Assembly (NCBI GenBank): GCA_965218695.1
Contig: OZ244651.1
Location: forward strand, 2,232,337-2,296,336
Direction of reading: 5' to 3'
DNA: 64,000 nt
Origin: Nitrosopumilus sp.
GTDB taxonomy: Archaea > Thermoproteota > Nitrososphaeria > Nitrososphaerales > Nitrosopumilaceae
Both the position numbers and the translations under genes were made by a program. Below the pieces are notes generated by a model. That model did no database searches. It was not told the origin of the DNA and saw only the letters and a list, made by a program, of their open reading frames with translations. Positions 13,377 through 37,950 of the stretch are shown here, piece after piece; position 1 is the first letter of the stretch, and every line of letters begins with the position of its first letter.

Positions 13377-14639
13377 CTACTTCAGGGGTGGCAGGGTGCC
13401 TTGGATGCGGCGGCCGGCCGCGCATCCGGCAGCGTGGCAGATGCAGCACGGATCCGGCGGCTTGTGCCTGGCAAGATCCCGGGGAATGGTCATCAGCAAA
13501 AGGATTGCCTTCATGTCAATCTGCCTCATTGTCAAATACACCCCGCTGCCGCCTGACATGCCCGGATTGCGTGTCAGCTCGGCATTTGCCAGAACCCACA
13601 CGTTGTACAGGATCATCGAGTAGAGAAAACAGAACAGCCGTGCGGTACTGGAGGTACTGCGCGTCCTTACCCTTTGGCTCTCCACCATCCTGTATCCCGT
13701 TTCTATGACCCACCTCTTGGAGTACAGGTCTGGCTTGATTCCGGGCACGCTTGTGGCAAACGCGATGTATTCCTCCTCGGGCTTTTTGCCGCCTGATTTC
13801 CTGCTTTTTCTTTTGCGTTTTGTTATTATCATGGTGTATTCCTCGTAGTCGTTCTTGGTCTTTGCTATGCGGAACCTGGACACTGCCATGCGCTCCCCGC
13901 GATCAAACTGCGCGATGGCCCGGATCACGTTGGTCGTGTTGACGCATGGCATGAGAAAGTCCACGCCCGTCTCATGCAGTGTCCGGATGACGTCGGTGGA
14001 AAAGAATTCGCGGTCAAGCATGGCAACCCCGATTCTGACCCTGTTGTCCCTGCACGTTTTGATGATCCGCCGTACAAAATCAGAGGCGTCTTCAAGGGCG
14101 GGCATGTGAATCACGCCAAGCGCAAGGTTCATCCTCCTGTTGACGCACTGCGCCGTGACGTAGCGCTCAAAACTGCCCGTCTTGCCCTTGCTCTTTGAGC
14201 GCACTACGTCTTCGTTGTGGTTGGAGTCCCAGCGGGGTATCAGGTGCATGTCTATGGCCACGTCCATCTTCCTGCCTGCAAGCATGCCCAGCTCCTGCAA
14301 CCTGTCCAGCTGGACGCCTATCTTTTCGTTAAACGCCTTGATCAGCTGATCCCTCTTGATCCTGGATATCGTGTCCCGGATCCACTCGCCGCTGACGGCC
14401 CGGCGGTGGGATTTTTTCAGCCCCGACAGGAAGGTCGTGGCATTGCGCATGGCAGACGCGTATCCAAAGGCCGAGACGCCAAGCAGCGCAGCTGCCACCA
14501 TGACCCTGTGAAAATCGGCCGGCCCGTACGTGGTGTTGTGCCTTTTGGGGGGCGGAATTCCGGGATCAAACGTCTCCGATACCCCGTCCATGACCGGCCC
14601 GCCCATCATGGCCGGATTGTTTTTCAGGGAACGCCGCAT
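13377..14639 (-). CDS. IS4-family (ISH8-like) DDE transposase, 5' region interrupted by the nested IS
   Basis: 420-aa ORF with DVAIDMHLIPRW, AMLDREFFS and YSKRWVIETGYRMVE. The reading frame continues in frame across the nested IS into 15889-15968. Confidence 0.8.
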   Translation of the reverse strand: MRRSLKNNPAMMGGPVMDGVSETFDPGIPPPKRHNTTYGPADFHRVMVAAALLGVSAFGYASAMRNATTFLSGLKKSHRRAVSGEWIRDTISRIKRDQLIKAFNEKIGVQLDRLQELGMLAGRKMDVAIDMHLIPRWDSNHNEDVVRSKSKGKTGSFERYVTAQCVNRRMNLALGVIHMPALEDASDFVRRIIKTCRDNRVRIGVAMLDREFFSTDVIRTLHETGVDFLMPCVNTTNVIRAIAQFDRGERMAVSRFRIAKTKNDYEEYTMIITKRKRKSRKSGGKKPEEEYIAFATSVPGIKPDLYSKRWVIETGYRMVESQRVRTRSTSSTARLFCFLYSMILYNVWVLANAELTRNPGMSGGSGVYLTMRQIDMKAILLLMTIPRDLARHKPPDPCCICHAAGCAAGRRIQGTLPPLK

Positions 14640-21937: not shown

Positions 21938-23289
21938 CCTCCCTAGAGGATGCGCTGACCCATTCGAGGAACGCAGGAATCGACGAGTGCGAGATAGTCC
22001 GCGCGACAAGAAGGGTCACCACAGTACGAATAACCGATTCGGCAATAGCAGAAGTCAAGCAGGGCCTGGATGACAGGTACGGAATCAGGCTGATTCACCA
22101 GAAGAGGATTGCCTCTATTCAGACGGCCAGCAGCGATGATCTGCGGGGATCCGTTGACGATGCGCTGAATTCGTCAAAGAGCCTCAGGCCCAGGGAGTTC
22201 TGGGGCGGGCTGCCGCACGCAGCACGTCCCGTGCAGCTCGAGGGTACGTTTGATGAGAGACTCAGGGACGTCTCGGGGGCAACGGCTGCAGACATTGCAC
22301 AGGACATGATAAACTCGGCTGCAGACGACAGGGTTGACACCGTTACAGGATCGCTTAACATAGTCTCGGAGCGTTTTGAGATAGAAAATTCCAACGGACT
22401 GCACCACGCAGACGATGCAACGTACATTGCAGGAATCATCAATGCAGACTCTGAACACGGAGTCGTGCCGGTATCCGGCATCGGCCACTCCAGTGCAAGA
22501 ACCCTGTCGGGCTTTTCGGCAGGACGTGCAGGACAGGACGCAAGGGAGATGTGCATCGGGTCAATAAACCCGCAGAAGATAGAGCCTGCAAGATACTCGG
22601 TAATACTTGAGCCGTATTCGGTGGGAGAGCTGCTCTCGTTTGTCGTCGCGCCAAACTTCAACCTCAAGACGTTTGCAGAAAAGAGGAGCTGCTTTGCAGG
22701 CAGGATTGGGGAGAGGATTGCAGCAGAGGAACTGAGCATGGCCGACGACCCACACATGCCAGAGGGGATAGGGACAAGATCCATAGACGACGAGGGCGTG
22801 GGCACCCAAAAGAGGCTGCTCATAGACAGGGGCGTCATGAGGGGCACCTTTTCAAACATGCTTGACGGCTACAGGGAGGGGACAGAGTCGTCTGGAAACG
22901 CCACAAGGCATGGCATCCCGATGGGCCGAAGCTGTGATCCAGTTCCGGACTCTGCTGCACACAACCTGACAATAGAACCCGGCAGAATGTCCCAAGACGA
23001 GATGATAAGGGATACCAGAAGAGGGCTGCTGGTCGGGAGGCTCTGGTATACGTATCCGGTAAATCCCATCAGGGGCGACTTTTCATGTACGGCAAGAAGC
23101 GGGATAAGGATAATCAAGGACGGCACAGTTGTTCCAGGAGTGCCAGTCAGGATAATACACAACCTACATGCCATGCTTGGCAGCATCTCGGGGATTGGAA
23201 GCGACCAGAGAAGCGTCATTCAATGGGCATCGCGCCCGGCAGCCGCACCGTCAGTCAGGATAGACGGCGTCCCGGTAGAGGCCATATGA
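21934..23289 (+). CDS. pmbA: PmbA/TldE-family peptidase component
   Basis: 451-aa ORF with the family-typical N-terminus (...VTTVRITDSAIAEVKQG...) and C-terminal GDFS...IKDG. It lacks HExxxH. Its TTG start overlaps the cofH stop (TTGA). Confidence 0.8.
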   Translation: MTSLEDALTHSRNAGIDECEIVRATRRVTTVRITDSAIAEVKQGLDDRYGIRLIHQKRIASIQTASSDDLRGSVDDALNSSKSLRPREFWGGLPHAARPVQLEGTFDERLRDVSGATAADIAQDMINSAADDRVDTVTGSLNIVSERFEIENSNGLHHADDATYIAGIINADSEHGVVPVSGIGHSSARTLSGFSAGRAGQDAREMCIGSINPQKIEPARYSVILEPYSVGELLSFVVAPNFNLKTFAEKRSCFAGRIGERIAAEELSMADDPHMPEGIGTRSIDDEGVGTQKRLLIDRGVMRGTFSNMLDGYREGTESSGNATRHGIPMGRSCDPVPDSAAHNLTIEPGRMSQDEMIRDTRRGLLVGRLWYTYPVNPIRGDFSCTARSGIRIIKDGTVVPGVPVRIIHNLHAMLGSISGIGSDQRSVIQWASRPAAAPSVRIDGVPVEAI

Positions 23290-23492
23290 GGAGTCACCAC
23301 CCCTCTTTGAAGAATGCCAGGGCCAAGTATGCAGCAGCAGCAGGCAGCAGCATAACCGCCCCCAGCCTGTCTTATTCCCGTACCGTGTGACTTGACATGC
23401 ATTGAAACAATCACTCTCTCCCCCCAAAAGAGAGTCCCATCGGCAGAATGCATGCCCAGGCAGATCCCGGATCCTGACACGTGGCCGGCTCC

Positions 23493-23544
23493 GGTTCTGT
23501 GAAGTTGTAGGTACATAGGCATGAATATGGATCTTCTCCAGATT
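23493..23544 (+). repeat. left 52-bp terminal inverted repeat
   Basis: GGTTCTGTGAAGTTGTAGGTACATAGGCATGAATATGGATCTTCTCCAGATT. Confidence 0.9.
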
Positions 23545-23600
23545 GATGCTCGGGAGGGCACTGTTCAGAATTGTGGATCAATGTTAAATCATGCCAAGCC

Positions 23601-23720
23601 AGATCATCTATGGTAACCCGTCCCCGGACCTATCCTTGCCTTGCGTCCGGCTTGCCACTTTGTGTATGCCTTTTGCCCTCTTAAGCATTATCTGCGGACA
23701 GAATCCTGCCAGATCCGCAG
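23601..23720. repeat. about 120-bp repeat arm shared with 34047-34319
   Basis: AGATCATCTATGGTAACCCGTCCCCGG...CTTAAGCATTATCTGCGGACAGAATCCTGCCAGATCCGCAG aligns by eye with both inverted arms of the palindromic element at 34047-34319. Confidence 0.75.
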
Positions 23721-23773
23721 AAGATACGGCTGTTTGCCCCGCGACGTGACATGCATAATCCCTTCCGGGGGGT

Positions 23774-23792
23774 CTGGGGGGCGTCCCCCCAG
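23774..23792. other. perfect GC hairpin (8-bp stem CTGGGGGG/CCCCCCAG, 3-nt loop)
   Basis: Seen directly in the sequence. It lies about 90 nt downstream of the IS110-type gene on the minus strand. Confidence 0.6.
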
Positions 23793-23881
23793 CATTCATG
23801 TAAAAACATCCCGTCATTCCCATAATTTGTGCACAGCATCCGCTATATCCGGCAGGTCTGCTGACGTCACCGGTTCTGCGT

Positions 23882-24955
23882 CTACACCCTCATCAGCTTC
23901 TTCATCTTGGTGCGGTACAGCGTCTTGTTCCTGTCCACGTACAGGGTGCCGTCCGACAGCATATGCCATATGATCGTCAGCATCTTGTTTGCGACGTGCG
24001 TCATGGCAATGTACGGCTTGTGCCTCTTGATCAGGCGGGCATAGTACCCCTTCATCCTCACGTCGTGGTGCGCTGCGACCATCGCGCACTGGATCATCAC
24101 CCAGTTGACCTTCCGGTTCGAATCCTTCTTCATCCTGCCGTGGTACAACGTGTCGCCGGACTGGTGGAGCGTGGGACACATCCCGGCCCAAGACACGAGC
24201 TTCTTTGGGCTGTCAAACCTTTCGATGCCGTCGATCTCCGCTGACACGAGTGCAACCGAGAACACGCTCATCCCCGTCATGCTCAGTATTTTGGAGCTGT
24301 AGCTGCCGCTGACGTAGCGCCTGATCTCGCCTTCGGTCTTTTTTATCTCGCCGTTGTAGTGCCTTATCCTGGATATGCAGCGGTCAAGGACGAACCTGTC
24401 GTGGACGCTTCCCATGTCCGCCCCCACGAGGTATTCCAGTACCTTCTCGCTCCAGACGTCTTGTCCACCGTCCTTGGGGCTGATGTCGTACTTGTCAGTC
24501 AGCGTGTGCCCGAAGTTGATCTCGCTTGTCCTGTCCTGCACCAGACGGATCTGGTATCTGATGACCTGCTTTATCCCACGGGATTCCGTGGATCCTATGT
24601 GGCATGCGGGAACCAAATCGGCCCTGAGCAGGTGGGCAAGCGTCCTTGCGTCGACGGTGTCGTTCTTTATGCTGGCCCACGCGATTGCCTTGATCTTGAA
24701 CGGGTTGGCAAGGTCGATGGGGATTCCCGCCTGCTCAAACGCGTCTGCCGTCTTTATCCAGTGGTTTCCGGTAGACTCGCAGACCGCCCTGCACTGCCCG
24801 TATTCGGTCCTGGCACTTGCCGCAAACTCGGAGGCGCCTGCCACGGTGTTGGCGTACGAGGATTCCTCGAGAATGTTTCCCTTTGAATCCATTATGCACG
24901 TGACGCACTTCCTCTTTCCAATGTCTATTCCGATACTCTTTTCTATTTTTCTCAC
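23882..24955 (-). CDS. IS110-family DEDD recombinase/transposase
   Basis: 357-aa ORF with IGIDIGKRK, CESTGNHW, NDTVDARTLAHLLRADL and the C-terminal LVSWAGMCPTLHQSGD (Transposase_20-like). Confidence 0.88.
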   Translation of the reverse strand: MRKIEKSIGIDIGKRKCVTCIMDSKGNILEESSYANTVAGASEFAASARTEYGQCRAVCESTGNHWIKTADAFEQAGIPIDLANPFKIKAIAWASIKNDTVDARTLAHLLRADLVPACHIGSTESRGIKQVIRYQIRLVQDRTSEINFGHTLTDKYDISPKDGGQDVWSEKVLEYLVGADMGSVHDRFVLDRCISRIRHYNGEIKKTEGEIRRYVSGSYSSKILSMTGMSVFSVALVSAEIDGIERFDSPKKLVSWAGMCPTLHQSGDTLYHGRMKKDSNRKVNWVMIQCAMVAAHHDVRMKGYYARLIKRHKPYIAMTHVANKMLTIIWHMLSDGTLYVDRNKTLYRTKMKKLMRV

Positions 24956-25149
24956 CTCCCTTTTGCTTGTGGCAGGCCGGAAGCTGCAAACATCTATCAG
25001 GGCTCGGAACCCAGTAACACAGCAGCTCGGATGGCCCCATTCACTAAACAGGCCTTGATGGCCATGATCTGATAGGGGTCGGCCCGCTACGTATGGTGGG
25101 CGTGTGGGGTTATCATGCGTTCACCAAAAATGAACAGTACCTACTGGAA

Positions 25150-26913
25150 GTAATTGTTTCGCTTTTTGAAGTAACCGGATGGCCTAGCGGACATCCATGG
25201 TACCGGGAATGAATCTAATAATTTCGTACTCGGGATGACAAAGTTAGACCATCGCGATCCAAGTACGAGTGGGTGCCAGTCCCTTCGATCTTTGGAAATG
25301 AAGGAACCAGCACGCCGAACATGCTTGGAGGCGGAGGAATTTAAGGCAATGCACGAACACTCCTTGCCGCAAATCCCGCTGGATGCCGGGGCGTGCATGG
25401 AACCAGGGTGCAGGTGCTGCCTGCACTGGGCAAAAATGTTCGGCGACGTGCTAGGCCCAACCCGCAAGATCCTGGAGGCAGCCTGCGAAATTGCAGGCGA
25501 GTCGGGCGCAGACTGGAAGGAGGCCGGGCGCCTGCAGGCGCTCGTCTCGTCCCTCACAGAGGACAACAAGAGGTACGCCAAGACAAACAGGGATCTCAAC
25601 GCCAAGGCAAACGGGATCAGCGTCCCCGCGCCCAAGAAGAAGGCCGGTCAGGGAAAGAAGGCCGCCGGCAGGCCCAAGGGGCAGAAACCCACCGTCAACT
25701 GCAGGCCAAAGCGCGTGGACCGCGTCGAGGAGATCGACTGCAAGGAGTGCCCCGACTGCGGCGGCGGGCTCTCTGGGAGGGTGACTGCCGAGTACGATCG
25801 CATCGTGACTGTCATGCGCGTCCTGTTGGAGAACGTCAGGTACGTCATCAAGCGGCGCTGGTGCCGCGTGTGCAAAAGACAGGTCTCCGGGAGGGTTCCC
25901 GGCGCGGCAAAACACGCGCGCCGTTCATCAAACTTTGACGCGGTCATGACGTCCCTGAACATGAATGGCATGTCGCATGCCAGGACCGCAGAATTTGGCG
26001 GCGACGCGTTGGGGCACGTAACCTCGCGCTCGTCTGCCTACCGCGGCAAGATCAGGCAGGCCGGGCGCATGGCGCCGGAACGCGATTCGGTAAGGGAGCG
26101 CGTGCTGGAGGCGCCACACCTGAACGTAGACGAGTTTCACTGGCCGCTGGGCGGCAAGCGCGGCTACGGGATAGTGGCTCTGGCAAAAAATCACTGCCTC
26201 GTGGAGGTGGCCGACTCGCGGGACATCAAGACGCTCCGCCAGACGCTCCCGGGCTACCGGGGAACCATAACGCAGGACTCGTATCCCGGGTGGCTCCACG
26301 TGGGATCGTGCCGCCAGATGTGCGTGTGGCACCAGGAACGCCTGGTGCAAAAGGACGTCCTGACCAACCCCGGGGGTGACGTTCCGGCGTTTCTGGACAG
26401 GCTGTCGGCAATCCACATGAAGATTTACCGCGCCTCCAGGATCAAGGACCGGCACCCAAGGATCGTCGCTGCCCGCTGCATAGACGCGGAGCTGCGCGAG
26501 CTGATGAACGAACCGTTTGCAGGCGACGGGGACGGCACCATCGCCCGGCACAAGAAGAGGTACCCGCGGGAGGGATATTTCATGACCACCTGCCTGCACG
26601 TGGACGGCATCGAGCCTGACAACAACGCAGTCGAGAGGGCCAACCGGAGGTTCGTGGCCGTAAGGAGCGACGGGGGCGGGAACCGCTCCAGGAAGGGCAT
26701 GGATGCCAACTCGATCCTGTTCACGCTGCTGGCAACTGACAGGATCAACAAGGACAGCTTCTTTGATCACCTGGTCCGCTCGTCTTCCGGGGACGGATGA
26801 GGCGCCGTCCGACGGCACGTGCAGTGCGTCACGGGGAAAAAGAGTCCACGGTAAGGGGAAGGCTGCACCCGCTCCGCTGCCAAGCAGCCCACTTCAAAAA
26901 GCGAAACTATTAC
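25150..26913 (+). mobile_element. IS66-family insertion sequence, single-ORF type (1764 bp)
   Basis: TIR GTAATTGTTTCGCTTTTTGAAGT (25150-25172) matches the reverse complement of 26891-26913 at 22 of 23. The 8-bp TSD is TACTGGAA (25142-25149 and 26914-26921). Confidence 0.9.
25235..26800 (+). CDS. IS66-family transposase (TnpC-like)
   Basis: 521-aa ORF with the zinc-ribbon CPDCGG...CRVCK and the motifs NVDEFHW, TQDSYPGW and DNNAVERANRRFV. Confidence 0.88.
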   Translation: MTKLDHRDPSTSGCQSLRSLEMKEPARRTCLEAEEFKAMHEHSLPQIPLDAGACMEPGCRCCLHWAKMFGDVLGPTRKILEAACEIAGESGADWKEAGRLQALVSSLTEDNKRYAKTNRDLNAKANGISVPAPKKKAGQGKKAAGRPKGQKPTVNCRPKRVDRVEEIDCKECPDCGGGLSGRVTAEYDRIVTVMRVLLENVRYVIKRRWCRVCKRQVSGRVPGAAKHARRSSNFDAVMTSLNMNGMSHARTAEFGGDALGHVTSRSSAYRGKIRQAGRMAPERDSVRERVLEAPHLNVDEFHWPLGGKRGYGIVALAKNHCLVEVADSRDIKTLRQTLPGYRGTITQDSYPGWLHVGSCRQMCVWHQERLVQKDVLTNPGGDVPAFLDRLSAIHMKIYRASRIKDRHPRIVAARCIDAELRELMNEPFAGDGDGTIARHKKRYPREGYFMTTCLHVDGIEPDNNAVERANRRFVAVRSDGGGNRSRKGMDANSILFTLLATDRINKDSFFDHLVRSSSGDG

Positions 26914-26969
26914 TACTGGAACAAGAAAAGGGTGCGTTAGGACTTTTCCTGCTTGTCGACCCGTGTTTT

Positions 26970-27287
26970 CTATATGGAATTCCATGACATTATGATGGGA
27001 GGACCGAAACAGGCCGGACCTATGGAAACCGCCTGCCCGCCCGTGAGGCCAATGCCGATGACTACCATGGGCATCACGTACCACCACTTGAACCTCTTTG
27101 CCTTCCATACGCCGACTGTCGCCATCGTGGCGAATATCGCCGTCGCGGCCGGCCCTAGGCACCACACTACCCCTGGAAAGTTCAGCCACATAACAATCAT
27201 GGCCAGTTGGTACGCGGCCCCGATTATGCCCGCGCCGGCAAACCACGCGTATGCATTTCTGGTAAAAAAAAGGAGGGTGGGATGCAT
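26970..27287 (-). CDS. small polytopic membrane protein, hypothetical (cargo of the TIR element)
   Basis: 105-aa ORF with about three hydrophobic helices. Confidence 0.35.
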   Translation of the reverse strand: MHPTLLFFTRNAYAWFAGAGIIGAAYQLAMIVMWLNFPGVVWCLGPAATAIFATMATVGVWKAKRFKWWYVMPMVVIGIGLTGGQAVSIGPACFGPPIIMSWNSI

Positions 27288-27311
27288 CAGTCTACTGTGT
27301 AAAAGAAGGCA

Positions 27312-27350
27312 CTGGTAAATTTAGGTGATTAGATCACCCTAATTTACCAG
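27312..27350. other. imperfect palindrome / hairpin
   Basis: CTGGTAAATT-TA-GGTGAT tag ATCACC-CT-AATTTACCAG gives a 10-bp plus 6-bp stem with a 2x2 internal loop. It is followed by a C10 run at 27360-27369 and lies just downstream of the 27369-27566 ORF. Confidence 0.5.
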
Positions 27351-27368
27351 AGTCACTGACCCCCCCCC

Positions 27369-27566
27369 CTAGGCTTTCAAGAGATCGCGGATCAGATTGG
27401 CAGAATCTGCCTTCTTTTGTTGTTTCAGGTGGGCCTTGTTGCTACTGTGTATCACCCAAGCTATCAGACAACTGGCTACGAGTCCTATGGCAGATCCGAT
27501 TATTGTACCCAATTCTATCAATTCTAACAATGAAAGCCCGAATATTGGACTTATGTCCGTTATCAA
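27369..27566 (-). CDS. small membrane protein, hypothetical (cargo of the TIR element)
   Basis: 65-aa ORF with a hydrophobic N-terminal half and a K/Q-rich tail. Confidence 0.35.
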   Translation of the reverse strand: MITDISPIFGLSLLELIELGTIIGSAIGLVASCLIAWVIHSSNKAHLKQQKKADSANLIRDLLKA

Positions 27567-27666
27567 TGAGAAGTATCCATGCTTGGCACTTATGTGAAGT
27601 ATTTTTTCGTCACCGAACTCAATTCAGAGAAGACTCATTTCCAGCTCCCGTAAACCCGACAGAACC

Positions 27667-27718
27667 AATCTGGAGAAGATCTATATTCATGCCTATGTAC
27701 CGATAACTTCACAGAACC
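27667..27718 (-). repeat. right 52-bp terminal inverted repeat
   Basis: AATCTGGAGAAGATCTATATTCATGCCTATGTACCGATAACTTCACAGAACC. Confidence 0.9.
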
Positions 27719-27721
27719 CCG

Positions 27722-27813
27722 GTACATACTCAGGTTCCCCTCAAACTCAGGCGTGAATATACGTAAAACAGTACATGTTTACGCCTAGACAATACCGGGA
27801 CCTGAGTATGTAC
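27722..27813. mobile_element. MITE copy 2 (92 bp)
   Basis: Differs from copy 1 by one substitution. The 8-bp TSD is GAACCCCG (27714-27721 and 27814-27821). That TSD is made of the last 5 nt of the 52-bp TIR plus the first 3 nt of its TSD. Confidence 0.9.
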
Positions 27814-27831
27814 GAACCCCGGCTCCGCAGG

Positions 27832-27863
27832 TTTATAATGCAGTGTACCGTACTATACGGTAC
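27832..27863 (+). promoter_or_regulatory. TATA box plus perfect palindromic operator candidate
   Basis: TTTATAA at 27832-27838. GTACCGTA-cta-TACGGTAC at 27845-27863 abuts the ATG at 27864. Confidence 0.5.
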
Positions 27864-28208
27864 ATGCAATCAAGACTCACGTGTATGACCCCGGAAGTGG
27901 CGGATCAGTTTGGAGACTTTATCATAAAGAGGGCCGAGCAGACACAGGACGTGGTAAGGGCAAGAACGAGGGATTTTAGCATGCTGTCCCTGCTGAAACT
28001 GCTGTATCAGCTCAGGGGCAGTCCCATGTCGTTTGTAGAGCTGTATACAAGGTCGGAGATCAGAATGAAGAGATCATTCCTGAATTACCTGCACCTGTGT
28101 GTGGACTATAACTTTGTCAAGAGGGAGGCAGTCGGATGCCGGGTAAGATACTCCATCACGTGCAGGGGGAGGACCATGCTGGATCTCTTCACGCAGAAAG
28201 ATAATTAG
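27864..28208 (+). CDS. winged-helix DNA-binding protein, putative regulator
   Basis: The track ORF starts at GTG 27843. ATG 27864 lies about 29 nt from the TATA centre and would give a leaderless mRNA. SLLKLLYQLRGSPMSFVELYTRSEIRMKRSFLNYLHLCVDYNFVKRE resembles a wHTH. Confidence 0.55.
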   Translation: MQSRLTCMTPEVADQFGDFIIKRAEQTQDVVRARTRDFSMLSLLKLLYQLRGSPMSFVELYTRSEIRMKRSFLNYLHLCVDYNFVKREAVGCRVRYSITCRGRTMLDLFTQKDN

Positions 28209-28230
28209 GCAGATCAGGCAGTACAAGATC

Positions 28231-28956
28231 ATGCAGAATGAATTTCCCGAGGCGGAGGTCTTTGAGACAAGAGACGTGGAGATGAACAGTCCGGTAATAT
28301 TTGCAGGATTCGTAGGGGCCGGCCTCGTAGGCCCGGTAGCAATAGACCACATAATCAAGGAGCTGGAGATGGACGAGGTGGGAGTGATAAGATCAAAGTA
28401 TCTCCCCCCGTCCACTGTCTTTATGAGGGGAAGGCTTCGCCATCCGTTCAGATTCTACGCAAACAAGAACGGAACAATCTGTGCAATAATCTGCGAGGTG
28501 ACCCTGAGGATGGACGGACTGTACTCGATGATATCGACCATTCTGGACTGGGCTGCATTGAAAGGCTCAAGGGAGATTGTGATTTTGGACGGGGTTGCAA
28601 GTGAGGCGCATGACAACAAGGCGTACTGCGCAGCAGAGGATGACTTGATCAGGACAATGGCAGACAAGGACATCAACATGATACCGCAGGGGTTCATTAC
28701 GGGTATGCCGGGAGGCATACTCAACGAATGCCTAGTAAGAGAGATCCAGGGCATAGCCCTGCTGGCAAAGGCAAACGACATGGAGCCTGATTCGGCGGCG
28801 GCGGCAACGCTCGTTGAGGCGCTTGGTAGGTTCTACGAGATTGACATAGATGCCACCGGACTGCGTGAGGAGAGCGAGAGGATTCAGTCAGAGTTCACCG
28901 AGCTCTCTGACAAGTATGTAAAGCATAGAAGAGAGATAACCGGGATGTACATGTGA
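28231..28956 (+). CDS. PAC2-family protein (proteasome-assembly-chaperone-like, COG1938)
   Basis: 241-aa ORF. NSPVIFAGFVGAGLVGPVAIDHII...RHPFRFYAN resembles archaeal PAC2 proteins. Confidence 0.65.
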   Translation: MQNEFPEAEVFETRDVEMNSPVIFAGFVGAGLVGPVAIDHIIKELEMDEVGVIRSKYLPPSTVFMRGRLRHPFRFYANKNGTICAIICEVTLRMDGLYSMISTILDWAALKGSREIVILDGVASEAHDNKAYCAAEDDLIRTMADKDINMIPQGFITGMPGGILNECLVREIQGIALLAKANDMEPDSAAAATLVEALGRFYEIDIDATGLREESERIQSEFTELSDKYVKHRREITGMYM

Positions 28957-30032: not shown

Positions 30033-30124
30033 ATTCCGCTTTTTGGTATTTGAACTATAATAAAAAAGTGCTTTTCTCGTCCGGTATTAGACATGCTTTT
30101 TAAGGAAAGTGTGCTCGCAGGGCG

Positions 30125-31480
30125 ATGACCCGGGAAAAGAGGCCCAAGAGGCACGACAAGATGCTGGAATTGGAGTCCGTGGTGCGCTGGCGGGGGCAGC
30201 TCAACGAGAGCGGCATCAGCAGCGGCATAAAAATCAACACCTACACGCGCGCCGTCTACCTGTCCAAGCTGTACCATTTCAACGAGTGGCTGGTCAAGCG
30301 CGAGTTCACCGTGCGCGTGCCGGTCGTAAAAAGCAAAAGGACGGTCCGCGAAAGCAGGCGGATGCCGTTTGCCAACGTGGAGGTGCTGCTCCACTTCGGC
30401 GAGGACGACAACGCCAAGAAGGTAAAGAGGATCGTTCAGGACTACCTGGCGGTGCTGCGCGACAGGGGGCTGTCCAACTCCACCATGGCCGGAGCGTGCT
30501 CGGCCATCAAGTCGTACTTTGACACGAACGACGTGGTAGTCAACGTCAAGCCACATTCGCTCAAGAGAAACGGATCAGTGGCTGTCGACGAGACCAAGCT
30601 GACGCTGCCGGAATTCTACAAGATGATGACCGTCGGCAAGATGAACCACCTGACGCGCGCCGTCCTCATGGTAAAGTTCCAGGCGGGGCTGGACAGGAGC
30701 ACGCTCGCCGACAGGTTCAACTTCCACGCGTACGCGCAGATCGCGAAGTTCTGCGGGACCAAGAACCACCGCGAATGGAGCCTCGACAAGTGCCCGATCC
30801 CGATCAGGCTCGTGCGGGTAAAGACCGGCGTCCAGTTCACCACCTTCATAGACCGCGACGCGCTGGCGGCGCTCAAGGACTACCTGGCGTGGAGGGAGGA
30901 AAATCACCCGTCGCACGATCCCGACGGCCCGATCTTCATCACCACGAAGGGCGAGCCGGTGTCCGTCGAGTGGGTGTCGCACACGTTCGCGAAGGGGGCC
31001 AAGTACTCCATGACGCAAAAGCGCCTGGGCCCACGCAAGGTCAAGCTGACGTCGCACTCCGTGCGCCACCTGCTCAAGACGACCCTCATCACCTGCGGGT
31101 GCGACCGATACGTGGCAGACTACGCCATCGGGCACGCGCCCGACACCTATGAAAGGCCGGATCTGTGTCCGGACAAGCTGAGGCGCGAGTACGCCAAGGC
31201 GTCGCACGCGATCAACATAATCTCCAAGGCCGCATCGAAGATAAACGACATGAGACCCGCAAACGCCATGGAAAAGGATCTGGAGGCAAGCAAGGCCAAG
31301 GTAGAGGAGTTGGAAAAGAAGGTCAACGAACTGAAGGCCGAGATTGCCAAGAAGAACGCCAGAAGCGCAGACGCCGTATCCAAGCTCGACATGGTGGTAA
31401 GGGCGATCATCGACGCGTCAGGCGATCCCGACGGGGACTTCCGCCAGAACCTCAAGGACAGGCTCGGCGGACTGCCTTAG
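30125..31480 (+). CDS. tyrosine recombinase / integrase
   Basis: 451-aa ORF with the catalytic-region motifs LTSHSVRHLLKT (HxxR) and AIGHAPDTYE (H...Y), followed by a coiled-coil C-terminal tail. Confidence 0.8.
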   Translation: MTREKRPKRHDKMLELESVVRWRGQLNESGISSGIKINTYTRAVYLSKLYHFNEWLVKREFTVRVPVVKSKRTVRESRRMPFANVEVLLHFGEDDNAKKVKRIVQDYLAVLRDRGLSNSTMAGACSAIKSYFDTNDVVVNVKPHSLKRNGSVAVDETKLTLPEFYKMMTVGKMNHLTRAVLMVKFQAGLDRSTLADRFNFHAYAQIAKFCGTKNHREWSLDKCPIPIRLVRVKTGVQFTTFIDRDALAALKDYLAWREENHPSHDPDGPIFITTKGEPVSVEWVSHTFAKGAKYSMTQKRLGPRKVKLTSHSVRHLLKTTLITCGCDRYVADYAIGHAPDTYERPDLCPDKLRREYAKASHAINIISKAASKINDMRPANAMEKDLEASKAKVEELEKKVNELKAEIAKKNARSADAVSKLDMVVRAIIDASGDPDGDFRQNLKDRLGGLP

Positions 31481-31649
31481 CGTGCCTTGACTCCAACGCG
31501 ACTCTCAATCTGCAAGAGACGGGATAATTGCGGGTTGTTCCGTGCGGACGCGATGCTTGCCCTCAGTAACCAACAGATTAGGCAACGCATGAAACAGAAA
31601 CGGCAGGCACAGTCAAAAATACTGGTTCAAATGCGGCAACCATAAAGTC

Positions 31650-31979
31650 CTACTCGTCATCCTTTTCAATACCCCTTTTCCTGTCGTAACGGCGGATGAT
31701 TACTGGCAAGATTGCGCCTGCCATGAAAAGCGGACTGGCAGTGACTAAGAACGTGAGAAAGAATACGTGCCTTTCCGTTTTTATCTCGCACGGCCACGTG
31801 ATTCCGTCCACCGAACATGGCGGAATCTGCATTTGCCATTGGGGGCAAGGTTGCATGATTCCGTTCACCTCATACCAGCAATTGTCAGAATTGTGCCTGA
31901 CGGCAGGCTCCAGAGGGAGTGCCAGCGCAAGATATGCGATCACGGCCACCGGGAGCAAGAAGAAAAACCCCCATGACAA
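31650..31979 (-). CDS. Cys-rich small membrane protein, paralogue A (possibly frameshifted)
   Basis: 109 aa from a TTG start, closely similar to the protein at 52815-53183. The conserved ATG (MKTGHKIILV, near 32003) is out of frame by 1 nt because of an extra base in a G5T5 run (plus strand A5C5, 31963-31972). Confidence 0.55.
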   Translation of the reverse strand: MSWGFFFLLPVAVIAYLALALPLEPAVRHNSDNCWYEVNGIMQPCPQWQMQIPPCSVDGITWPCEIKTERHVFFLTFLVTASPLFMAGAILPVIIRRYDRKRGIEKDDE

Positions 31980-32000
31980 GAATAATCTTGTGCCCGGTTT

Positions 32001-32267
32001 TCATTTTTTGATCCTCCACAATGCCAAGACGCCCATGCAGGCAAACGACACACCCAGCATGAGGAACCCAGCCGGTTCTTCTGGCACGACGTCAAAAAGA
32101 TTTGTGGACGCCGACGTTCCAAAGAAGTTGAGCCCACTAATGTGTGATGACTCGTTGTTGCAATCTGGCAGCATTTCGCATGTGAGCCAAACAACGTGTG
32201 GCACCTGAGGCCAAACTGCAAAGAAGGCCAGAGTCGTGATTGCCGGGGCTTTGTACCGATTTCTCAT
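32001..32267 (-). CDS. small secreted protein with a PEP-CTERM-like C-terminal tail
   Basis: 88-aa ORF with a signal peptide (MRNRYKAPAITTLAFFAV) and the C-terminal VPEEPAGFLMLGVSFACMGVLALWRIKK. Confidence 0.5.
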   Translation of the reverse strand: MRNRYKAPAITTLAFFAVWPQVPHVVWLTCEMLPDCNNESSHISGLNFFGTSASTNLFDVVPEEPAGFLMLGVSFACMGVLALWRIKK

Positions 32268-32289
32268 CTTCTGAATTTCGGCTTCGTTT

Positions 32290-33888
32290 GTAACTGTGTA
32301 GTTTTTTGATCAAATGCTGAATTCCATGTCTCCAAGAAACTATGTATTTTTTTGACATAGGACCAGACCCTCGCGCAGGACCGTGCCAAGATCATCTCCC
32401 CTTGCCTTGCATGTCTGCTTGATGCTCATCAGCGTGGCAATGGCGTCTGCGCCCTTCTTTGACCTGCTCCCGTTGCTGTTCTTGCGCAGGATGACGCACG
32501 GCCTGATGGCCCGCTCTGCCCGGTTGTTGTGGTATTCGACATCGTCTGTCTCCAGAAACGCAAACAGGTGATCCCTTTCCCGCACCAGCCTCTTGCGCAT
32601 CCTGTTGCAGTGCTTGCAGTCGCGGTTCTTCTCGAGCCTGCCTATCATGGACGCGATGCGACGATCCAGCCTCTTCTTTGCGGCAAGCGCGTCTGCCCCT
32701 CCCGGAACGGCGCCGTCGACGTGCGAGTCCCGCAGTATCGCGCGCAGCGTCCTTGCGTGCCGACGGTAGTCCTGGCCGGGATTCTTGTATCTCAGGGTGG
32801 CCTTGACGTCCCGGACGTAATGCAGGTGGCACTTTTGGTGCATGGCTCCTATGACGTTCCACGCTCCCCACGAGTCAGACGTCACGCATCCCGGGTAGTC
32901 CTTGCCGAGCATCTTTTTTGGAACCTTCGAGTTCCTGCGGCGGTGCACCTCGTAGATTACGGCGTACCTTGTTACCACCGCCCACAGCCAGTAGTTCGTG
33001 CCGTCGACGCGCCAGACGGACTCGTCCCCGTTTATCGCAGGCGAGTTTCTTACCTCCTCCTTGATCTTCTCGTACAGCGGCCCGAGCTCCCGGGCCATCC
33101 TGCACACCATACGGTTTATCGCAGATTCCGTGATTCTTGCCGAGTACATCATCATGACAATATTGCATATTCTGAGGTCTGACATGCCGTGCAGCCTGAG
33201 GATGACCATCATTATCATAAAGTTGATCCCGTACCTGGAGTTTGGCAGTGCCAGCGGAGTCCTGCCGGACACGGTCTTCTTGCAGTTCCTGCAACGTCTT
33301 CTCTTTACTGTCACCTTGATGTGCTTTAGTTCCGTCTTGGCAGCCTCCCTTACCACCTTTGTGTACGTGGATACGCACTCGGAGAGGTCGGAGCTGCCGC
33401 AGTTGTCGCACGTGTGGGGATCTGCCGTCTCCTCTGCGTCTATTCTTTCAGGACGCGCAAGGCCCGTGCGCCTGTGGACGCTTGGCTTGCCCTTGGCCTT
33501 TGTGCGGCGTCTGGCACTGCCCGTCTTTTTGTCAGGTTTTGCGCCGATGCTCCTTGCAACGGCAGCCGATATGGTGCCCCTTGCTTCCTGCAACTCTGCC
33601 GTGAGGTCCTGGATCTGCCTGAGGGCGGCAGCGTAAAGATCAGTGAGTTTGGCTATCTGCTGGTCCTTTTTGGCCAGCTGCCCTGCCATCATCTCCACTT
33701 TTTCCTCCAGTTCTGCAATCCTTGACTCGGAATTATCATCAGACATAATGCAAACCGTGGGAACTGATGATCTAAAAATTGGAATGGAGAGAAAAACTCG
33801 ATCAAGTGATTAAAAATAGTTTCAAAAAAACTACACAGACGTTTGTAGGCATGGAATTCAACATTTGATCAAAAAACTACACAGTTAC
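32290..33888 (-). mobile_element. IS66-family insertion sequence, single-ORF type (1599 bp)
   Basis: 39-bp TIR GTAACTGTGTAGTTTTTTGATCAAATGCTGAATTCCATG matches the reverse complement of 33850-33888 at 38 of 39. The 8-bp TSD is CTTCGTTT (32282-32289 and 33889-33896). Confidence 0.92.
32340..33746 (-). CDS. IS66-family transposase (TnpC-like)
   Basis: 468-aa ORF with an N-terminal coiled coil, CDNCGS...CRNCKK, NGDESVWRV, VTSDSWGAW and HNNRAERAIRPCV. Confidence 0.88.
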   Translation of the reverse strand: MSDDNSESRIAELEEKVEMMAGQLAKKDQQIAKLTDLYAAALRQIQDLTAELQEARGTISAAVARSIGAKPDKKTGSARRRTKAKGKPSVHRRTGLARPERIDAEETADPHTCDNCGSSDLSECVSTYTKVVREAAKTELKHIKVTVKRRRCRNCKKTVSGRTPLALPNSRYGINFMIMMVILRLHGMSDLRICNIVMMMYSARITESAINRMVCRMARELGPLYEKIKEEVRNSPAINGDESVWRVDGTNYWLWAVVTRYAVIYEVHRRRNSKVPKKMLGKDYPGCVTSDSWGAWNVIGAMHQKCHLHYVRDVKATLRYKNPGQDYRRHARTLRAILRDSHVDGAVPGGADALAAKKRLDRRIASMIGRLEKNRDCKHCNRMRKRLVRERDHLFAFLETDDVEYHNNRAERAIRPCVILRKNSNGSRSKKGADAIATLMSIKQTCKARGDDLGTVLREGLVLCQKNT

Positions 33889-33918
33889 CTTCGTTTAATT
33901 ATAATGGTTCCGAGTGTC

Positions 33919-34319
33919 GGTTCTGTAACGTTATCGTGTGCTGTGTATGGATCTTCTCCGGGTTGGATCGCGGTTGAGGCTACACATTCACGGGGGCTCT
34001 TCAAACAAGACGGTCTGACGCATATCGATTGGATGAATTTTGTCTAAGATCCACATCTATGTTAACCCCTCCCCGGGCTTGTCCAAGTTTTGCGTCCAGC
34101 TTGTCATATTGAGTATGTTTTTTTCCTTCTTAAGCGTTACCTGCATGCAGAATCCTGCCAGATCCGCGGGACAACAAGATCCAAACCTTGCCGTTTTCTG
34201 CAAATTTGACTGAATTCTTCTTGCAGGTAACGCTTAAGAAGACAAAGGGCATACCCAAAGTGACAAGCTGGACGCAAAACACGGATGAGTCCGGGGAGGG
34301 GTTACATATATGTGGATCT
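33919..34319. repeat. degenerate third copy of the 52-bp TIR end module, followed by a 273-bp palindromic element
   Basis: 33919-33970 (GGTTCTGTAACGTTATCG...TATGGATCTTCTCCGGGTTGGATCG) resembles 23493-23550. 34047-34150 and 34214-34319 are inverted copies of each other, and both resemble 23601-23720. Confidence 0.7.
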
Positions 34320-34440
34320 GGAATGCCCTGTGGAGCATTTCTGGTGATCCTACTGATTGGTTTGCTGAAATCTTCGCCTTAGTCTGGCTTTCTTTGTAAT
34401 TCTCTGTCGTGATTAAAGAAAAAGATTAGTTGTCTACGTC

Positions 34441-35004
34441 TTATCCGCCTCTTCCCAGATGTTCTGTTATCTTTTCTAGGTCCAGAGCCTCGTCATCCCA
34501 TTGTTCATGGTATTTACCATTTTCACGTAGAACAAATGTAGATTGAATTCCTTGTGAATCATAGTATGTTCCATGTACTAAATCATCTACGGGATTATCC
34601 AGATAAACCAAGACTTGAGCATCTCTCTCGAATGTTGGAACCGGTTCAAATTTGGTTGTGACTTGATTGTGCGTTCCACCTACAGTCCTTACTGTGATAA
34701 GAGCACCTTCTAGCCCATCATCGCCCAAAAGAACATCGGTTACACGAAGATCAGTCAGTGTAAAGACCTTGGGGAAGACCAATTCACCTACACTAAAGTA
34801 GGTAAGATATGTCCTTGAATCATCTACGATGCCTTTAACGGCGATATCGGCTTTTTCTGCCATTTTTTCTGCTGTGCCTTCGACCATAAACCCATGTGTT
34901 TTACTTTCATGAGGTATGTATCCCATCACTGCGACAGTAAAAACCAACATGACCGTTAGAGAAACTCCAATGGCTGGAATGGACACCAATTTTTTACGGC
35001 TCAT
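34441..35004 (-). CDS. membrane-anchored hypothetical protein (AT-rich island cargo)
   Basis: The likely start is MSRKKLVSIPAIGVSLTVMLVFTVAV (ATG at 35004); the track ORF extends to GTG 35034. I recognise no family. Confidence 0.55.
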   Translation of the reverse strand: MSRKKLVSIPAIGVSLTVMLVFTVAVMGYIPHESKTHGFMVEGTAEKMAEKADIAVKGIVDDSRTYLTYFSVGELVFPKVFTLTDLRVTDVLLGDDGLEGALITVRTVGGTHNQVTTKFEPVPTFERDAQVLVYLDNPVDDLVHGTYYDSQGIQSTFVLRENGKYHEQWDDEALDLEKITEHLGRGG

Positions 35005-35304
35005 TTTCAGTATTTTCCTTGAATTTCTGATCACCTAAATTTGCCAGTGCCATGTAACATTATCAGGTGCCAAGCATGGAATATGAATTTTCTCTGAAAT
35101 GGTGTGGTGGATGGAGAAAGGCATTTTATGGGAACTGGTAATGCGGTCCACCCCGTTGGAAGTATGAGCAGCTCTCTGTCTTCAACTTGGCAATTCTTCG
35201 TGCACGCCTCTGCATAATATTCCATCGATGAGTATGCTCTTGGTGTGGTAGAAGACTGATGTTGGATCCGTCGGAATGTGTTTCCCGTCAGGTGGATCTT
35301 CTGG

Positions 35305-36054
35305 CTACTGCTCCCATGCTCTTGCCTGTGCCTCTTCGAGGTACCTGTCGCAGTCATCACCGTCTTCTATCAGGATACAATCGCCGTACTCGCCGACGAC
35401 TAGCCAGTAGTATAGGTCTGCTTCGCGCATCTCATACGGGGGACGTCCAAGCAGTGTTTGGGTCTCCACAATCTCCAGTATCTCCGGTGCCAGCACACTC
35501 ATGCTGCCAAACATGTCCTCCAGGCTTTCACTGACCGCGCCTACTGGGTATTCTGCCTCCAGGTATGCGTGAAGTTTTTGCAGCGGCTCCAGATCAGGCT
35601 GCTGGTACGTTCCGGCCAGCTTGCTTTCATGTATTACGAGTGCTGCCACCTTTTCCGGATTTACTACCGCGTCTGTCAGTACAACAAAGTTGGTTGTACG
35701 TATACCCAAGTTGATGGATTCCTCCATGTGTGGGTTGCCTTTGCTTGCCTCCAGCCTTTCGTTCCAGCGGGTATAATTCCACCTGATCTCTTCTATTCCG
35801 TCAAAGTGTTCAACTAACGCAGGGGACATTTCGTACGGTATGCGGTAGCCGTCAAAGATCTTCCCGTTTGAGATGGATTCATGCCTCAACTCGGCTATTG
35901 ACCGCTCTTCCTGTGTTTCCTCGCTCGGGGCATCTGCCAGCCCGTCATCATTTCCTACAAAGGACAGTCCGGCCTGCACTACCAGAAGCAATGCCACAAC
36001 TGCAAGCATTCCAGCTAGGATTAATTTTTTGCCAGTCATTGCCTTTTTGTTCAT
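35305..36054 (-). CDS. secreted/anchored hypothetical protein (AT-rich island cargo)
   Basis: 249-aa ORF with the signal anchor MNKKAMTGKKLILAGMLAVVALLLVV and an acidic mature part. Confidence 0.6.
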   Translation of the reverse strand: MNKKAMTGKKLILAGMLAVVALLLVVQAGLSFVGNDDGLADAPSEETQEERSIAELRHESISNGKIFDGYRIPYEMSPALVEHFDGIEEIRWNYTRWNERLEASKGNPHMEESINLGIRTTNFVVLTDAVVNPEKVAALVIHESKLAGTYQQPDLEPLQKLHAYLEAEYPVGAVSESLEDMFGSMSVLAPEILEIVETQTLLGRPPYEMREADLYYWLVVGEYGDCILIEDGDDCDRYLEEAQARAWEQ

Positions 36055-36387
36055 TGTTGATGTGGGAAAGTTTGGTTTAATAGGCTTTGATTAAAGATCT
36101 GTGGGCTCTGGTAAGTTTTGGTGATCTGTCGTTCACTGTTCAAAAGTGTGTTTTGGGATATTCTCAGGATTCGGTTCCGCCGCATTTCATCAGGGCGTTC
36201 GAAAGTGTCATGCCCCCAATAATGTGGTTCAAAAGTGAACTGAGTCACATTCACACCTTGGTGGTAGATTTTCGTGATCTCAGTACGATCTTTTGAGTAA
36301 CAAATGAGAGATCACTAGAATTTGCCAGAGCCATCGGCACCATACGCACATACAGGTCGGGGGCTTATATCGATAAGTATACAACCT

Positions 36388-37719
36388 TTACAGTTGTAAA
36401 GTCGTGCGTACCGCGTTGTTCCACGCCATCTTGTGGACGTACTTGATCCTGTAGTCGTCTTCCACGAGTCCGGCGTACAGTTTAACGAATCCGTCCATGT
36501 CGTCCAAAAGCGACAAGGCCCATTTGATGCCGTCCAAGACGCTAGATACAATCACTTGGCAGCCGTGTTCCATCCCGATCCGTTCCGCTTCCAGCACTGC
36601 CGCTCCCATGTCGCCGACCGGCGTAGCGGCCAGCAGTCTGTATTTGTTGGCAGATGGGGCTTTGGAACCGCCTCTTACGCGCCGCACGATCACTGGGGTG
36701 ATCGACTTTCCAGGCCGGATCTCGACTAACTCGTAGACGAATCCGGTATCTGGATCGAACTCCTTCACGTGCCCGAACGCGCTAGCTCCCGTACCGCGCA
36801 CAACCGTCTCGGTTACCGACGCGCCGCCCCACGCGCCGTTTCCAGCAGCTTCCCTGTAGGCAGCATGAACTGCCAGCGTAGGAAGTCTTATCCTTGCCTG
36901 GTCGCCGCACTTGAAGTGCTTTTCAAGTATCCTTTCCACATCATTTGCAGTCAGGCCTACGGGCCTGTCGAGTTTTGCCTTCCCTATCTCGCGCAAGTCA
37001 ACCAAGACCTTGAGCGCGTAAACCAGAAGGTCTCTCGGATTGGCCTTGCCGTCCTCCACGTGGCCCAGCATGGACAAGAACGCCTCCCTGACTCCCCCGC
37101 CACCGATGTCGCCGGGATATTCAAATCCATACGGCGCCTTCCAGTCAAACGAATGATCAGACCACCCCGATCTCCGATCCGCAGAGAAGCCGTTGGACTC
37201 CAGAAACGGCGTGACAGTCCCGGCATCCAGATTGCGCCCGGAATAGCCGCCCGGAATGTCTGAGCGGTGCAGCCGCACGTCCTGTCCGGGATCGGTGCAT
37301 TTCTTGAGCAACGACGTGATCATGACCGTGACTGCCGCCCCGTTGCCTGACGACGCCACCGTTTCCACCATTTCCTTGGCCAGCTTGTACGGTGCGTGCC
37401 CGCCACCGGAGGCAGCTATATTCAGGCATTCTCGGAGAATATGACGTGCATTCATCATTTTTGCAGGGAAGAAATGGCATATAAGCGCGGCACTCAGCGT
37501 CAGGAGGTAGCGGCTGGCGGCAATCCTCCGGGAACTGACGTTCTCTGCGGACTGGACATAAATCTTGTATTGCTCAAGAATGTCTGCGGTAAAGGAGCCA
37601 TCATATGTTTTCTTGGTCTTGCGAACCAGATCCTCGTCCTGTCGGTCAGTCACGCACATAGTGGGCGGATGGTCGGGTGGCTTGCCTGCATCGTGTAGTC
37701 GCTCTTGCACCAACCACAT
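36388..37719 (-). CDS. orphan 443-aa protein of unknown family
   Basis: Long ORF with protein-like composition. An alternative start is MCVTDRQ at 37659. The segment FDPDTGFVYELVEIRPGK is reminiscent of a PD-(D/E)xK-type nuclease signature, but I cannot assign a family. Confidence 0.6.
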   Translation of the reverse strand: MWLVQERLHDAGKPPDHPPTMCVTDRQDEDLVRKTKKTYDGSFTADILEQYKIYVQSAENVSSRRIAASRYLLTLSAALICHFFPAKMMNARHILRECLNIAASGGGHAPYKLAKEMVETVASSGNGAAVTVMITSLLKKCTDPGQDVRLHRSDIPGGYSGRNLDAGTVTPFLESNGFSADRRSGWSDHSFDWKAPYGFEYPGDIGGGGVREAFLSMLGHVEDGKANPRDLLVYALKVLVDLREIGKAKLDRPVGLTANDVERILEKHFKCGDQARIRLPTLAVHAAYREAAGNGAWGGASVTETVVRGTGASAFGHVKEFDPDTGFVYELVEIRPGKSITPVIVRRVRGGSKAPSANKYRLLAATPVGDMGAAVLEAERIGMEHGCQVIVSSVLDGIKWALSLLDDMDGFVKLYAGLVEDDYRIKYVHKMAWNNAVRTTLQL

Positions 37720-37901: not shown

Positions 37902-37950
37902 GTTTACGCCTGCTAATCCTGAAATTCACGTACGAACCTAAGCAGTTACC
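37856..37950. mobile_element. 95-bp MITE with IS66-like termini
   Basis: Perfect 17-bp TIR GGTAACTGCTTAGGTTC (37856-37872) pairs with GAACCTAAGCAGTTACC (37934-37950). The flanking 7-bp direct repeat is CCGTTCT (37849-37855 and 37951-37957). The terminus GTAACTG.TTAG resembles the TIR of the IS66 at 32290. Confidence 0.8.

Follow-up and report, generated by a model that had tools for sequence, protein, structure and literature searches.

MIC231 of Bacillus cereus is an example of a mobile insertion cassette (MIC). The category is used by ISfinder and ISsaga for elements that are moved in trans by a cognate insertion sequence (IS) (PMC3129680). In IS621, an arrangement has been described in which the first loop of the bridge RNA binds the target and the second loop the donor, each pairing with both strands, core included (Durrant et al. 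2024, PMC11208160). Transposons may themselves serve as targets: IS4321 and IS5075, two members of the IS1111 group, are reported to insert into the terminal inverted repeats (TIRs) of Tn21-family transposons (Partridge and Hall 2003, cited in PMC11208160). Here we analyse a 64-kb stretch of DNA (the window; all coordinates are positions in it) from a Nitrosopumilales-type archaeon, and in particular the intergenic block of ~4.3 kb at 23485-27826, where elements resembling these systems lie nested in one another. The block very probably results from four separate insertions into a single intergenic site: first a transposase-less unit with long TIRs (the long-TIR unit), and then an IS110-family element, an IS66-family insertion sequence and a miniature inverted-repeat transposable element (MITE).

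The nested block and its empty sites

The target site of the nest has a TldD/PmbA-type peptidase gene on one side and, on the other, a pair formed by a small open reading frame (ORF) and a PAC2 gene. The PAC2 protein shares ~78% identity with Nitrosopumilus proteins and 93% with its counterparts in the three closest genomes. Seven contigs of these closest genomes (L010-L016) carry the TldD/PmbA-type gene and then, ~260 bp on, the small ORF and PAC2. According to blastn, they follow the window colinearly (~93% DNA identity) as far as 23484 and from 27819 onwards, and all seven lack the insert and hold a single octamer, CCTGCCCC, at the junction. After excision of the block in silico, window and relatives align across the junction (CGTGG--CCGGCTCCGCAGGTTTATAATGCA in the former, CGCGGGACCTGCCCCACAGGTTTATAATGCA in the latter). 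A strain-level empty site was also sought through exact copies of PAC2; no further contig matched, and the species-level relatives were used instead. This distribution points to an insertion of the long-TIR unit that followed the split from the ~93% relatives.

The ends of the unit were read from a repeat scan. Its left TIR (23493-23550, plus strand), beginning GGTTCTGTGAAGTT, and its right TIR (27661-27718, minus strand) are 58 nt long and complementary at 53 of 58 positions (91%). The 53-nt core of the repeat occurs twice in the window, as against no occurrence in 100 dinucleotide-preserving shuffles, and any pairing of the arms past 58 nt stays at chance level (260 of 2000 shuffles). Directly outside the left arm lies the target-site duplication CCGGCTCC (23485-23492), identified by direct reading and by the junction alignment with the relatives. 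In its right copy, spread over 27719-27826, the MITE and the duplication that belongs to it separate 27719-27721 from 27822-27826.

This MITE, also found by the repeat scan, measures 92 bp (27722-27813) and has 17-nt ends, GTACATACTCAGGTYCC. Its 8-bp duplication GAACCCCG (27714-27721 and 27814-27821) covers the terminal 5 nt of the long TIR and 3 nt of the duplication of the long-TIR unit. The MITE must be later than the unit, as its duplication overlaps both the tip of the TIR and the older octamer. A second copy, 91/92 identical, is located at 4969-5060 with a different duplication, AGGAACAG, at 4961-4968 and 5061-5068.

The IS66-family insertion sequence is 1,764 bp long (25150-26913, plus strand) and was delimited by the repeat scan. 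Its ends of 23/24 nt start with GTAA (GTAATTGTTTCGC...), and copies of its 8-bp duplication TACTGGAA lie at 25142-25149 and 26914-26921. A single gene (25235-26800) encodes a 521-aa transposase (PF03050, DDE_Tnp_IS66, 3.6e-14); we found none of the accessory tnpA/tnpB ORFs of canonical IS66, the transposase strand of the element having only one ORF of more than 200 aa. The insertion lies 22 bp from the left end of the IS110 element, or 26 bp if TTGG is counted as target. A 10-kb metagenome contig of low coverage (L001, 2x), 99.9% identical to the window on either side of the IS66, lacks this layer alone: it keeps one copy of TACTGGAA and has the MITE at 27722-27813. Because so close a relative shows the empty site, the IS66 is a recent insertion, still polymorphic in the population. 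It is the latest of the four, or at least the sole layer that is still polymorphic.

Without the IS66 the unit measures 2,454 bp, and without IS110, IS66 and MITE it is reduced to 937 bp that hold no transposase. The events may be reconstructed as follows. The 937-bp unit with its 58-nt TIRs inserted first, duplicating the octamer CCGGCTCC; this insertion can be read directly from the locus, and the enzyme would presumably have been a DDE transposase acting in trans by staggered cutting. In a second step, the 1,517-bp IS110 element entered 112 bp inside the left end by a mechanism, presumably RNA-guided, that involves neither TIRs nor a duplication, two segments of one RNA loop (loop A) matching the DNA around a TG core and another loop (loop B) matching the element's own ends. 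Third, the MITE landed across the junction of right TIR and duplication, copying GAACCCCG, and in the fourth and most recent step the IS66 inserted near the IS110 left end, copying TACTGGAA. The IS110 and the IS66 are both later than the long-TIR unit; the numbering of steps fixes no relative order between IS110 and MITE.

An earlier note on this DNA had read the block as a three-layer nest, with IS66 inside an element with 52-bp TIRs and a MITE on its boundary. Much of that description stands, and the positions given in it are accurate. One and the same octamer does flank both ends once the 92-bp MITE and its duplication are removed, intact on the left and split on the right; the IS66 has its own TIRs, duplication and, in L001, empty site; the MITE has its own duplication too; and the size without IS66, put at about 2.46 kb, was close to our measurement. 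The order proposed, TIR unit first and IS66 and MITE later, agrees with both the duplications and the empty sites, and in the alignment of the excised window with the seven relatives, positions 23485-23492 and 27822-27826 are contiguous, so that the check which the note had set for refuting the insertion speaks for it. The inverted repeat is real, but its length had been underestimated, and the layers number four, the IS110 being separate.

Further observations concern the surroundings of the nest. A TATA-like box, TTTATAAT (27832-27839, in the stretch 27827-27842), lies 5 bp downstream of the nest, just ahead of the small ORF/PAC2 pair, and is kept with its downstream sequence in the relatives. 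Similar TATA-like sequences are found just downstream of both MITE copies (TTTATAATGCAGT, 27814-27844; TTTGTATTGCAGT, 5061-5096), with a similarity score reached by 45 of 2000 shuffles; this may reflect a promoter-proximal preference of the MITE, or chance with only two copies. On the other side, just 3' of the TldD/PmbA-type gene, a GCA/CAG trinucleotide repeat (~23325-23350) varies in length among L010-L016.

Kin and cargo of the long-TIR unit

A third, diverged terminus related to the long TIR is present at 33919-33976 (plus strand; GGTTCTGTAACGTTATCG...TATGGATCTTCTCC...). Its alignment score of 44 compares with a shuffle mean of 14.7 and was reached in none of 2000 shuffles; it carries a 6-nt deletion, and no partner arm for it was found within the window. 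Because of this third terminus, we assign the ends to a small repeat family, for which the profile of the three known termini is GGTTCTGTRAMGTT...GATCTTCTCC. The right end of the unit holds a second GGTTCTGT motif (27659-27666, in the region 27655-27666, minus strand), 52 nt inside the terminal one and in direct orientation, which could be a candidate second transposase-binding site; the left end has no such second motif. A composite transposon was considered and rejected: the arms are only 58 nt with no further pairing, and the inner GGTTCTGT of the right arm is direct, not inverted.

Searches for further members were made at several scales. A scan of a genome collection with a 19-mer of the TIR returned two matches, both in Methylophilaceae, when about four were expected by chance in 596 Gb. 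Metagenomes gave no match to the terminal 27-nt pattern, a degenerate pattern covering all three known termini had none in metagenome or viral contigs, and blastn of the 937-bp ancestral element against plasmids was equally negative. Short matches to the inner part of the TIR (TCTGGAGAAGATC) in loci L004 and L007 belong to a different MITE family, of ~245 bp, and were set aside as probably due to chance. The earlier note had called for a search for other TIR copies and an autonomous partner; it had missed the solo terminus at 33919, which is all that our search yielded, and no partner was found.

What might have moved the unit can be approached through the other transposases of the window. Several DDE families could account for an 8-bp duplication. 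ISH6, considered for its GGT end and 8-bp duplication, was rejected as source family: it duplicates an AT-rich 8-bp motif, AANATNTT (PMC3942029), and the duplication here is CCGGCTCC. The window contains seven transposase genes in 64 kb, together with at least two MITE families: one IS110, two IS66 and four others, namely one DDE_Tnp_4 (IS5-like), two DDE_3 (IS630-like) and one DDE_Tnp_1. None of the genes at 1043-2356, 6453-7412, 9260-10384 and 13377-14639 has ends related to the long TIR. The second IS66 (copy 2, 32290-33888), which encodes a 468-aa transposase (PF03050, 1.5e-34), is of more interest in this respect. Its ends start with GTAA and extend into 64-nt TIRs, its 8-bp duplication CTTCGTTT lies at 32282-32289 and 33889-33896, and it sits 22 bp from the solo terminus.

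As a refinement of the four-insertion reading, the long-TIR unit could derive from a long-TIR IS66 element and be mobilised by an IS66-type transposase encoded elsewhere in the genome. The 8-bp duplication, common to both IS66 copies of the window, would fit such an origin, as would the 64-nt TIRs of copy 2, with whose left TIR the long TIR is colinear in the same register (11/16, 13/22 and 17/30 matches; 18 of 2000 shuffles). However, the two differ in their four outermost bases (GGTT against GTAA), the right TIR of copy 2 gives no significant alignment (206 of 2000), and the solo terminus gives none at all (~1000 of 2000). With about ten comparisons made, a p of ~0.01 is borderline, and no IS66-type gene between GGTTCTGT ends occurs in the window or in the 19 fetched loci. 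We regard an IS66 origin as the best lead to the family, but as a tentative proposal that is somewhat unlikely on present evidence. The earlier statement that none of the window's DDE transposases has matching ends was nearly right, the weak alignment of copy 2 being the qualification.

Copy 2 and the solo terminus both lie in a strain-specific island of 7.9 kb (30077-37949), which occupies the place of ~1.5 kb in the relatives. The island starts with the gene for a 451-aa tyrosine integrase (30125-31480), adjoining the TBP gene, and also holds a palindrome formed from an IS110 right end and several ORFs without Pfam match. The sole tRNA gene of the window (tRNA-Pro, 40276-40351) lies away from the border of the island.

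The cargo of the unit had been described as two small membrane ORFs, possibly passenger genes. Both ORFs are present, but one is truncated and the other is found elsewhere without the TIRs. The first, of 105 aa (26970-27287, minus strand), has two homologues with 83% and 67% amino-acid identity, and dN/dS, the ratio of nonsynonymous to synonymous substitution rates, ranges from 0.48 to 0.73 over the three copies. On account of this ratio and of a reading frame that is open in all three copies, we consider it probably a real gene under weak constraint. Two loci, L007 and L008, share ~440 bp with the window, comprising the 105-aa gene, its 3' flank and an upstream promoter palindrome, with other neighbours and no 58-nt TIR. 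The palindrome, found by the repeat scan 5' of the ORF (27312-27350), is composed of two back-to-back ends, GGCTCTGGTAAATTTAGGTGATC, of the ~245-bp MITE family, which differs from the 92-bp one and has 24-nt ends and an internal foldback structure. In L007, two copies of this MITE (5660-5907 and 6362-6609), inverted to each other, flank the 105-aa gene; what is left in the window and in L008 (5935-5981) is a remnant pair of back-to-back ends of 39-47 bp. The family is represented in L004 as well (190-388).

The second ORF, of 65 aa (27369-27566, minus strand), corresponds to the N-terminal third of a gene for a DUF4760-type membrane protein (PF15956 in the full-length relatives): it matches only the N-terminal ~65 residues of proteins of 170-175 aa, and the C-terminal part of the gene was not found anywhere in the window. 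A C10 tract (27360-27369) marks the point where the end of the truncated ORF meets the start of the 105-aa module, and may be a recombination or rearrangement junction. In this composition, the interior of the long-TIR unit is mosaic debris and not a set of two intact genes. A DUF4760-type fragment was also seen in L001 (4702-4897), where tblastn matches it in two pieces and two frames; this is either a real frameshift in a decaying pseudogene or an assembly error (2x coverage).

The IS110 element and its guides

The IS110-family element occupies 23605-25121 on the minus strand (1,517 bp, one core TG counted). It encodes a 357-aa DEDD recombinase (23882-24955; PF01548, 4.6e-22; PF02371, Transposase_20, 1e-19), whose presence between the TIRs had been noticed before and whose closest relatives are ~64-74% identical at the protein level. 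Six relatives were compared together with their flanks (L002/L003, two copies in L004, L017, L018 and L019). Their DNA similarity is confined to window positions 23605-25127 and ends at identical bases, in unrelated contexts and without long TIRs. The window element has the ends AACGCATG... and ...CATAGA, and all elements have a TG at both junctions. The gene is preceded by a left end of 166 nt (24956-25121, minus strand) and followed by a conserved, non-coding right end of 277 nt (23605-23881, minus strand; ...GGGTTACCATAGA-TG), and a subterminal inverted repeat of ~10 nt, ATGATAACCC / GGGTTACCAT, is found in this lineage. In recombinase orientation, the left target with its core reads TTTTGG-TG (25122-25129, minus strand) and the right target ATCTGG (23599-23604), from which an insertion target TTTTGG-TG-ATCTGG can be reconstructed. 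The two flanks thus differ, and there is no duplication past the TG core.

The left ends (166-172 nt, 5' of the recombinase gene) are predicted by RNAalifold, from seven sequences, to fold into an outer stem around two stem-loops, and 6 base pairs of the consensus are maintained through two-sided changes. In the window copy, the predicted bridge-RNA-like transcript has its outer stem within 25080-25090 and 24969-24979, loop A at 25035-25078 and loop B at 24982-25028, all on the minus strand. The internal loop of the first stem-loop (loop A), which is unpaired, holds two hypervariable segments. The 5' segment (UCAGAUC, inside 25062-25078) is antisense to the core G and to the six bases with which the 3' flank of the same element begins. 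Over seven elements, this guide forms 5-7 Watson-Crick pairs of 7 with its own flank (mean 6.2), as against 2.5 for mismatched pairs. The 3' segment (GUUUAG-UG-AAU, inside 25035-25050) has the same sense as the bases directly upstream of the left-junction TG, with 4-6 contiguous matches to the own 5' flank in six elements and a cross-pair mean of 0.8. In loop B, GAUAGAUG matches the right end CATAGA-TG, and a GUGUU is able to pair with the bases that open the left end (AAYRC). This covariation of guides and flanks follows the logic of a bridge RNA, from which we infer expression of the RNA and its part in catalysis.

Because its ends are shared by six relatives without long TIRs and its flanks match the guides of its own RNA, we interpret the IS110 element as a separate, autonomous guest in the long-TIR unit, and not as the unit's transposase.

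A second trace of this lineage lies in the strain-specific island. At 34047-34319, the terminal ~115-135 nt of the IS110 right end occur as two inverted copies, which form a palindrome of 273 bp and match 23605-23720 at 76-80% identity. Neither a recombinase gene nor a left end accompanies the palindrome, which may have arisen by rearrangement or be a non-autonomous derivative. We considered whether this locus and the nest share a common junction between terminus and IS110 end; unrelated spacers and differing flanks rule this out.

The palindrome lies ~130 bp inside the solo terminus, and the IS110 element is likewise close behind the left TIR of the unit. These two co-occurrences might suggest that the IS110 lineage specifically targets the long-TIR family, the more so as members of IS110/IS1111 are described, in work cited in PMC11208160, as targeting the TIRs of other elements and repetitive extragenic palindromic (REP) sequences. 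Yet the target sequences differ, the spacers are not homologous, and the relatives in L002, L004, L017, L018 and L019 all reside in unrelated sequence. As both loci are strain-specific and dense in insertion sequences, chance co-occurrence is likely, and we hold specific targeting to be very improbable.

The earlier note had left two possibilities for the recombinase gene: a non-autonomous TIR element invaded by an IS110, which is what the element's own ends and guide-matched flanks argue for, or one unusual IS110-type element with long TIRs that makes an 8-bp duplication. In favour of the latter, the recombinase gene does lie between the TIRs, no other transposase belongs to them, and the solo terminus, too, has a fragment of this IS110 right end ~80 bp inward of it. 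Against it, the six recombinase relatives share only 23605-25127 and have no such TIRs, and the IS110 element has a guide-matched target of its own and no duplication past the TG core. Moreover, the two loci have unrelated spacers between terminus and IS110 end (524 of 2000 shuffles) and different abutting flanks (TGGATC against ATCTGG). We give this second possibility hardly any credence. Scarcely more credible is that the 58-nt repeats are duplicated host fragments, or unrelated solo ends bracketing host DNA, as the existence of cargo elsewhere without TIRs and of a single complete copy might suggest: both arms are directly bordered on their outer side by an exact 8-bp duplication, seven related contigs lack the entire block base for base, a related terminus is present a third time, and no host gene of the window matches the arms.

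Several points weigh against four insertions with a trans-mobilised first unit. Across the window, the fetched loci and the collection scans, the family amounts to one complete copy and one solo terminus, and an autonomous element with matching ends turned up neither in the window and the 19 fetched loci nor in the genome-collection scan, the two metagenome scans, the viral scan or the plasmid search. In the IS110 element of the window, the left guide matches its flank at 5 of 7 positions only, with mismatches at -2 and -6, and an Rfam scan of 23000-28300 (E up to 1) gave no match to the left end. The arms of the long-TIR unit differ at 5 of 58 positions and its interior holds a truncated gene, because of which the unit may be dead. 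The four-insertion reading takes the long-TIR unit as a non-autonomous element akin to a mobile insertion cassette, presumably moved in trans; with one complete copy known and no autonomous partner found, we can only infer this mobilisation and the family itself.

Comparison with known systems

The locus does not challenge the current understanding of transposition. It offers a clean worked example of one intergenic site that received four insertions, in an order readable from the duplications and backed by empty sites at both population and species level. It also documents, in a lineage of ammonia-oxidising archaea, active and varied mobile elements: two MITE families, a long-TIR IS66, an IS110 of bridge-RNA type and a cassette.

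The long-TIR unit resembles MICs in having TIRs and a target-site duplication, no transposase of its own, and unrelated ORFs. It departs from them by its 58-nt TIRs, which are unusually long, by a cargo that is partly truncated and by its host, an ammonia-oxidising archaeon; furthermore, it is known from one full copy and one solo end, with no cognate IS found.

The IS66 family is represented by 25150-26913 and 32290-33888, both of which have DDE_Tnp_IS66, GTAA ends and an 8-bp duplication. They differ from it in that both lack tnpA/tnpB, and the 64-nt TIRs of copy 2 are unusually long. We take these elements to fit the single-ORF, ISBst12-like subgroup.

As for IS621, the window IS110 has in common with it a DEDD recombinase with Transposase_20, the absence of TIRs and duplication, and a left-end RNA with two looped stem-loops. 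Loop 1 matches the target flanks on opposite strands and loop 2 the element's own ends, and the core dinucleotide is repeated at both junctions. However, the core is TG in place of the CT of IS621, the hosts are archaeal, and the strand order of the guides is swapped in both loops, each loop's 5' side pairing with the bottom strand in IS621. This swapped order bears on the comparison with IS621, not on membership of the IS110 family. The long right end (277 nt) and the subterminal inverted repeat of ~10 nt recall the IS1111 group, whereas the left-end position of the guides is that of the IS110 group. The set of seven IS110 members provides natural pairs of guide and target, archaeal, with TG core and swapped order, of possible interest for the mining of bridge recombinases. 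Like IS4321 and IS5075, the window IS110 lies inside another transposon near its end; unlike them, it lies 112 bp inside that end and not in the TIR, with no sign of family-specific targeting.

A bolder interpretation would combine these features: the 58-nt-TIR unit and the solo end would represent an undescribed archaeal family of non-autonomous transposons that carries cargo, is mobilised by a divergent single-ORF transposase of IS66 type with long TIRs and takes up and shuffles small membrane-protein genes and fragments of genes in ammonia-oxidising archaea, alongside a bridge-RNA variant with TG core, swapped guides and IS1111-like traits. We consider this unlikely as a whole. Nested insertions are ordinary in archaeal genomes rich in insertion sequences, and every component seen here is of a known kind; measured against the systems described so far, there is modest novelty in the long-TIR cassette family and in the archaeal variant of a bridge RNA.

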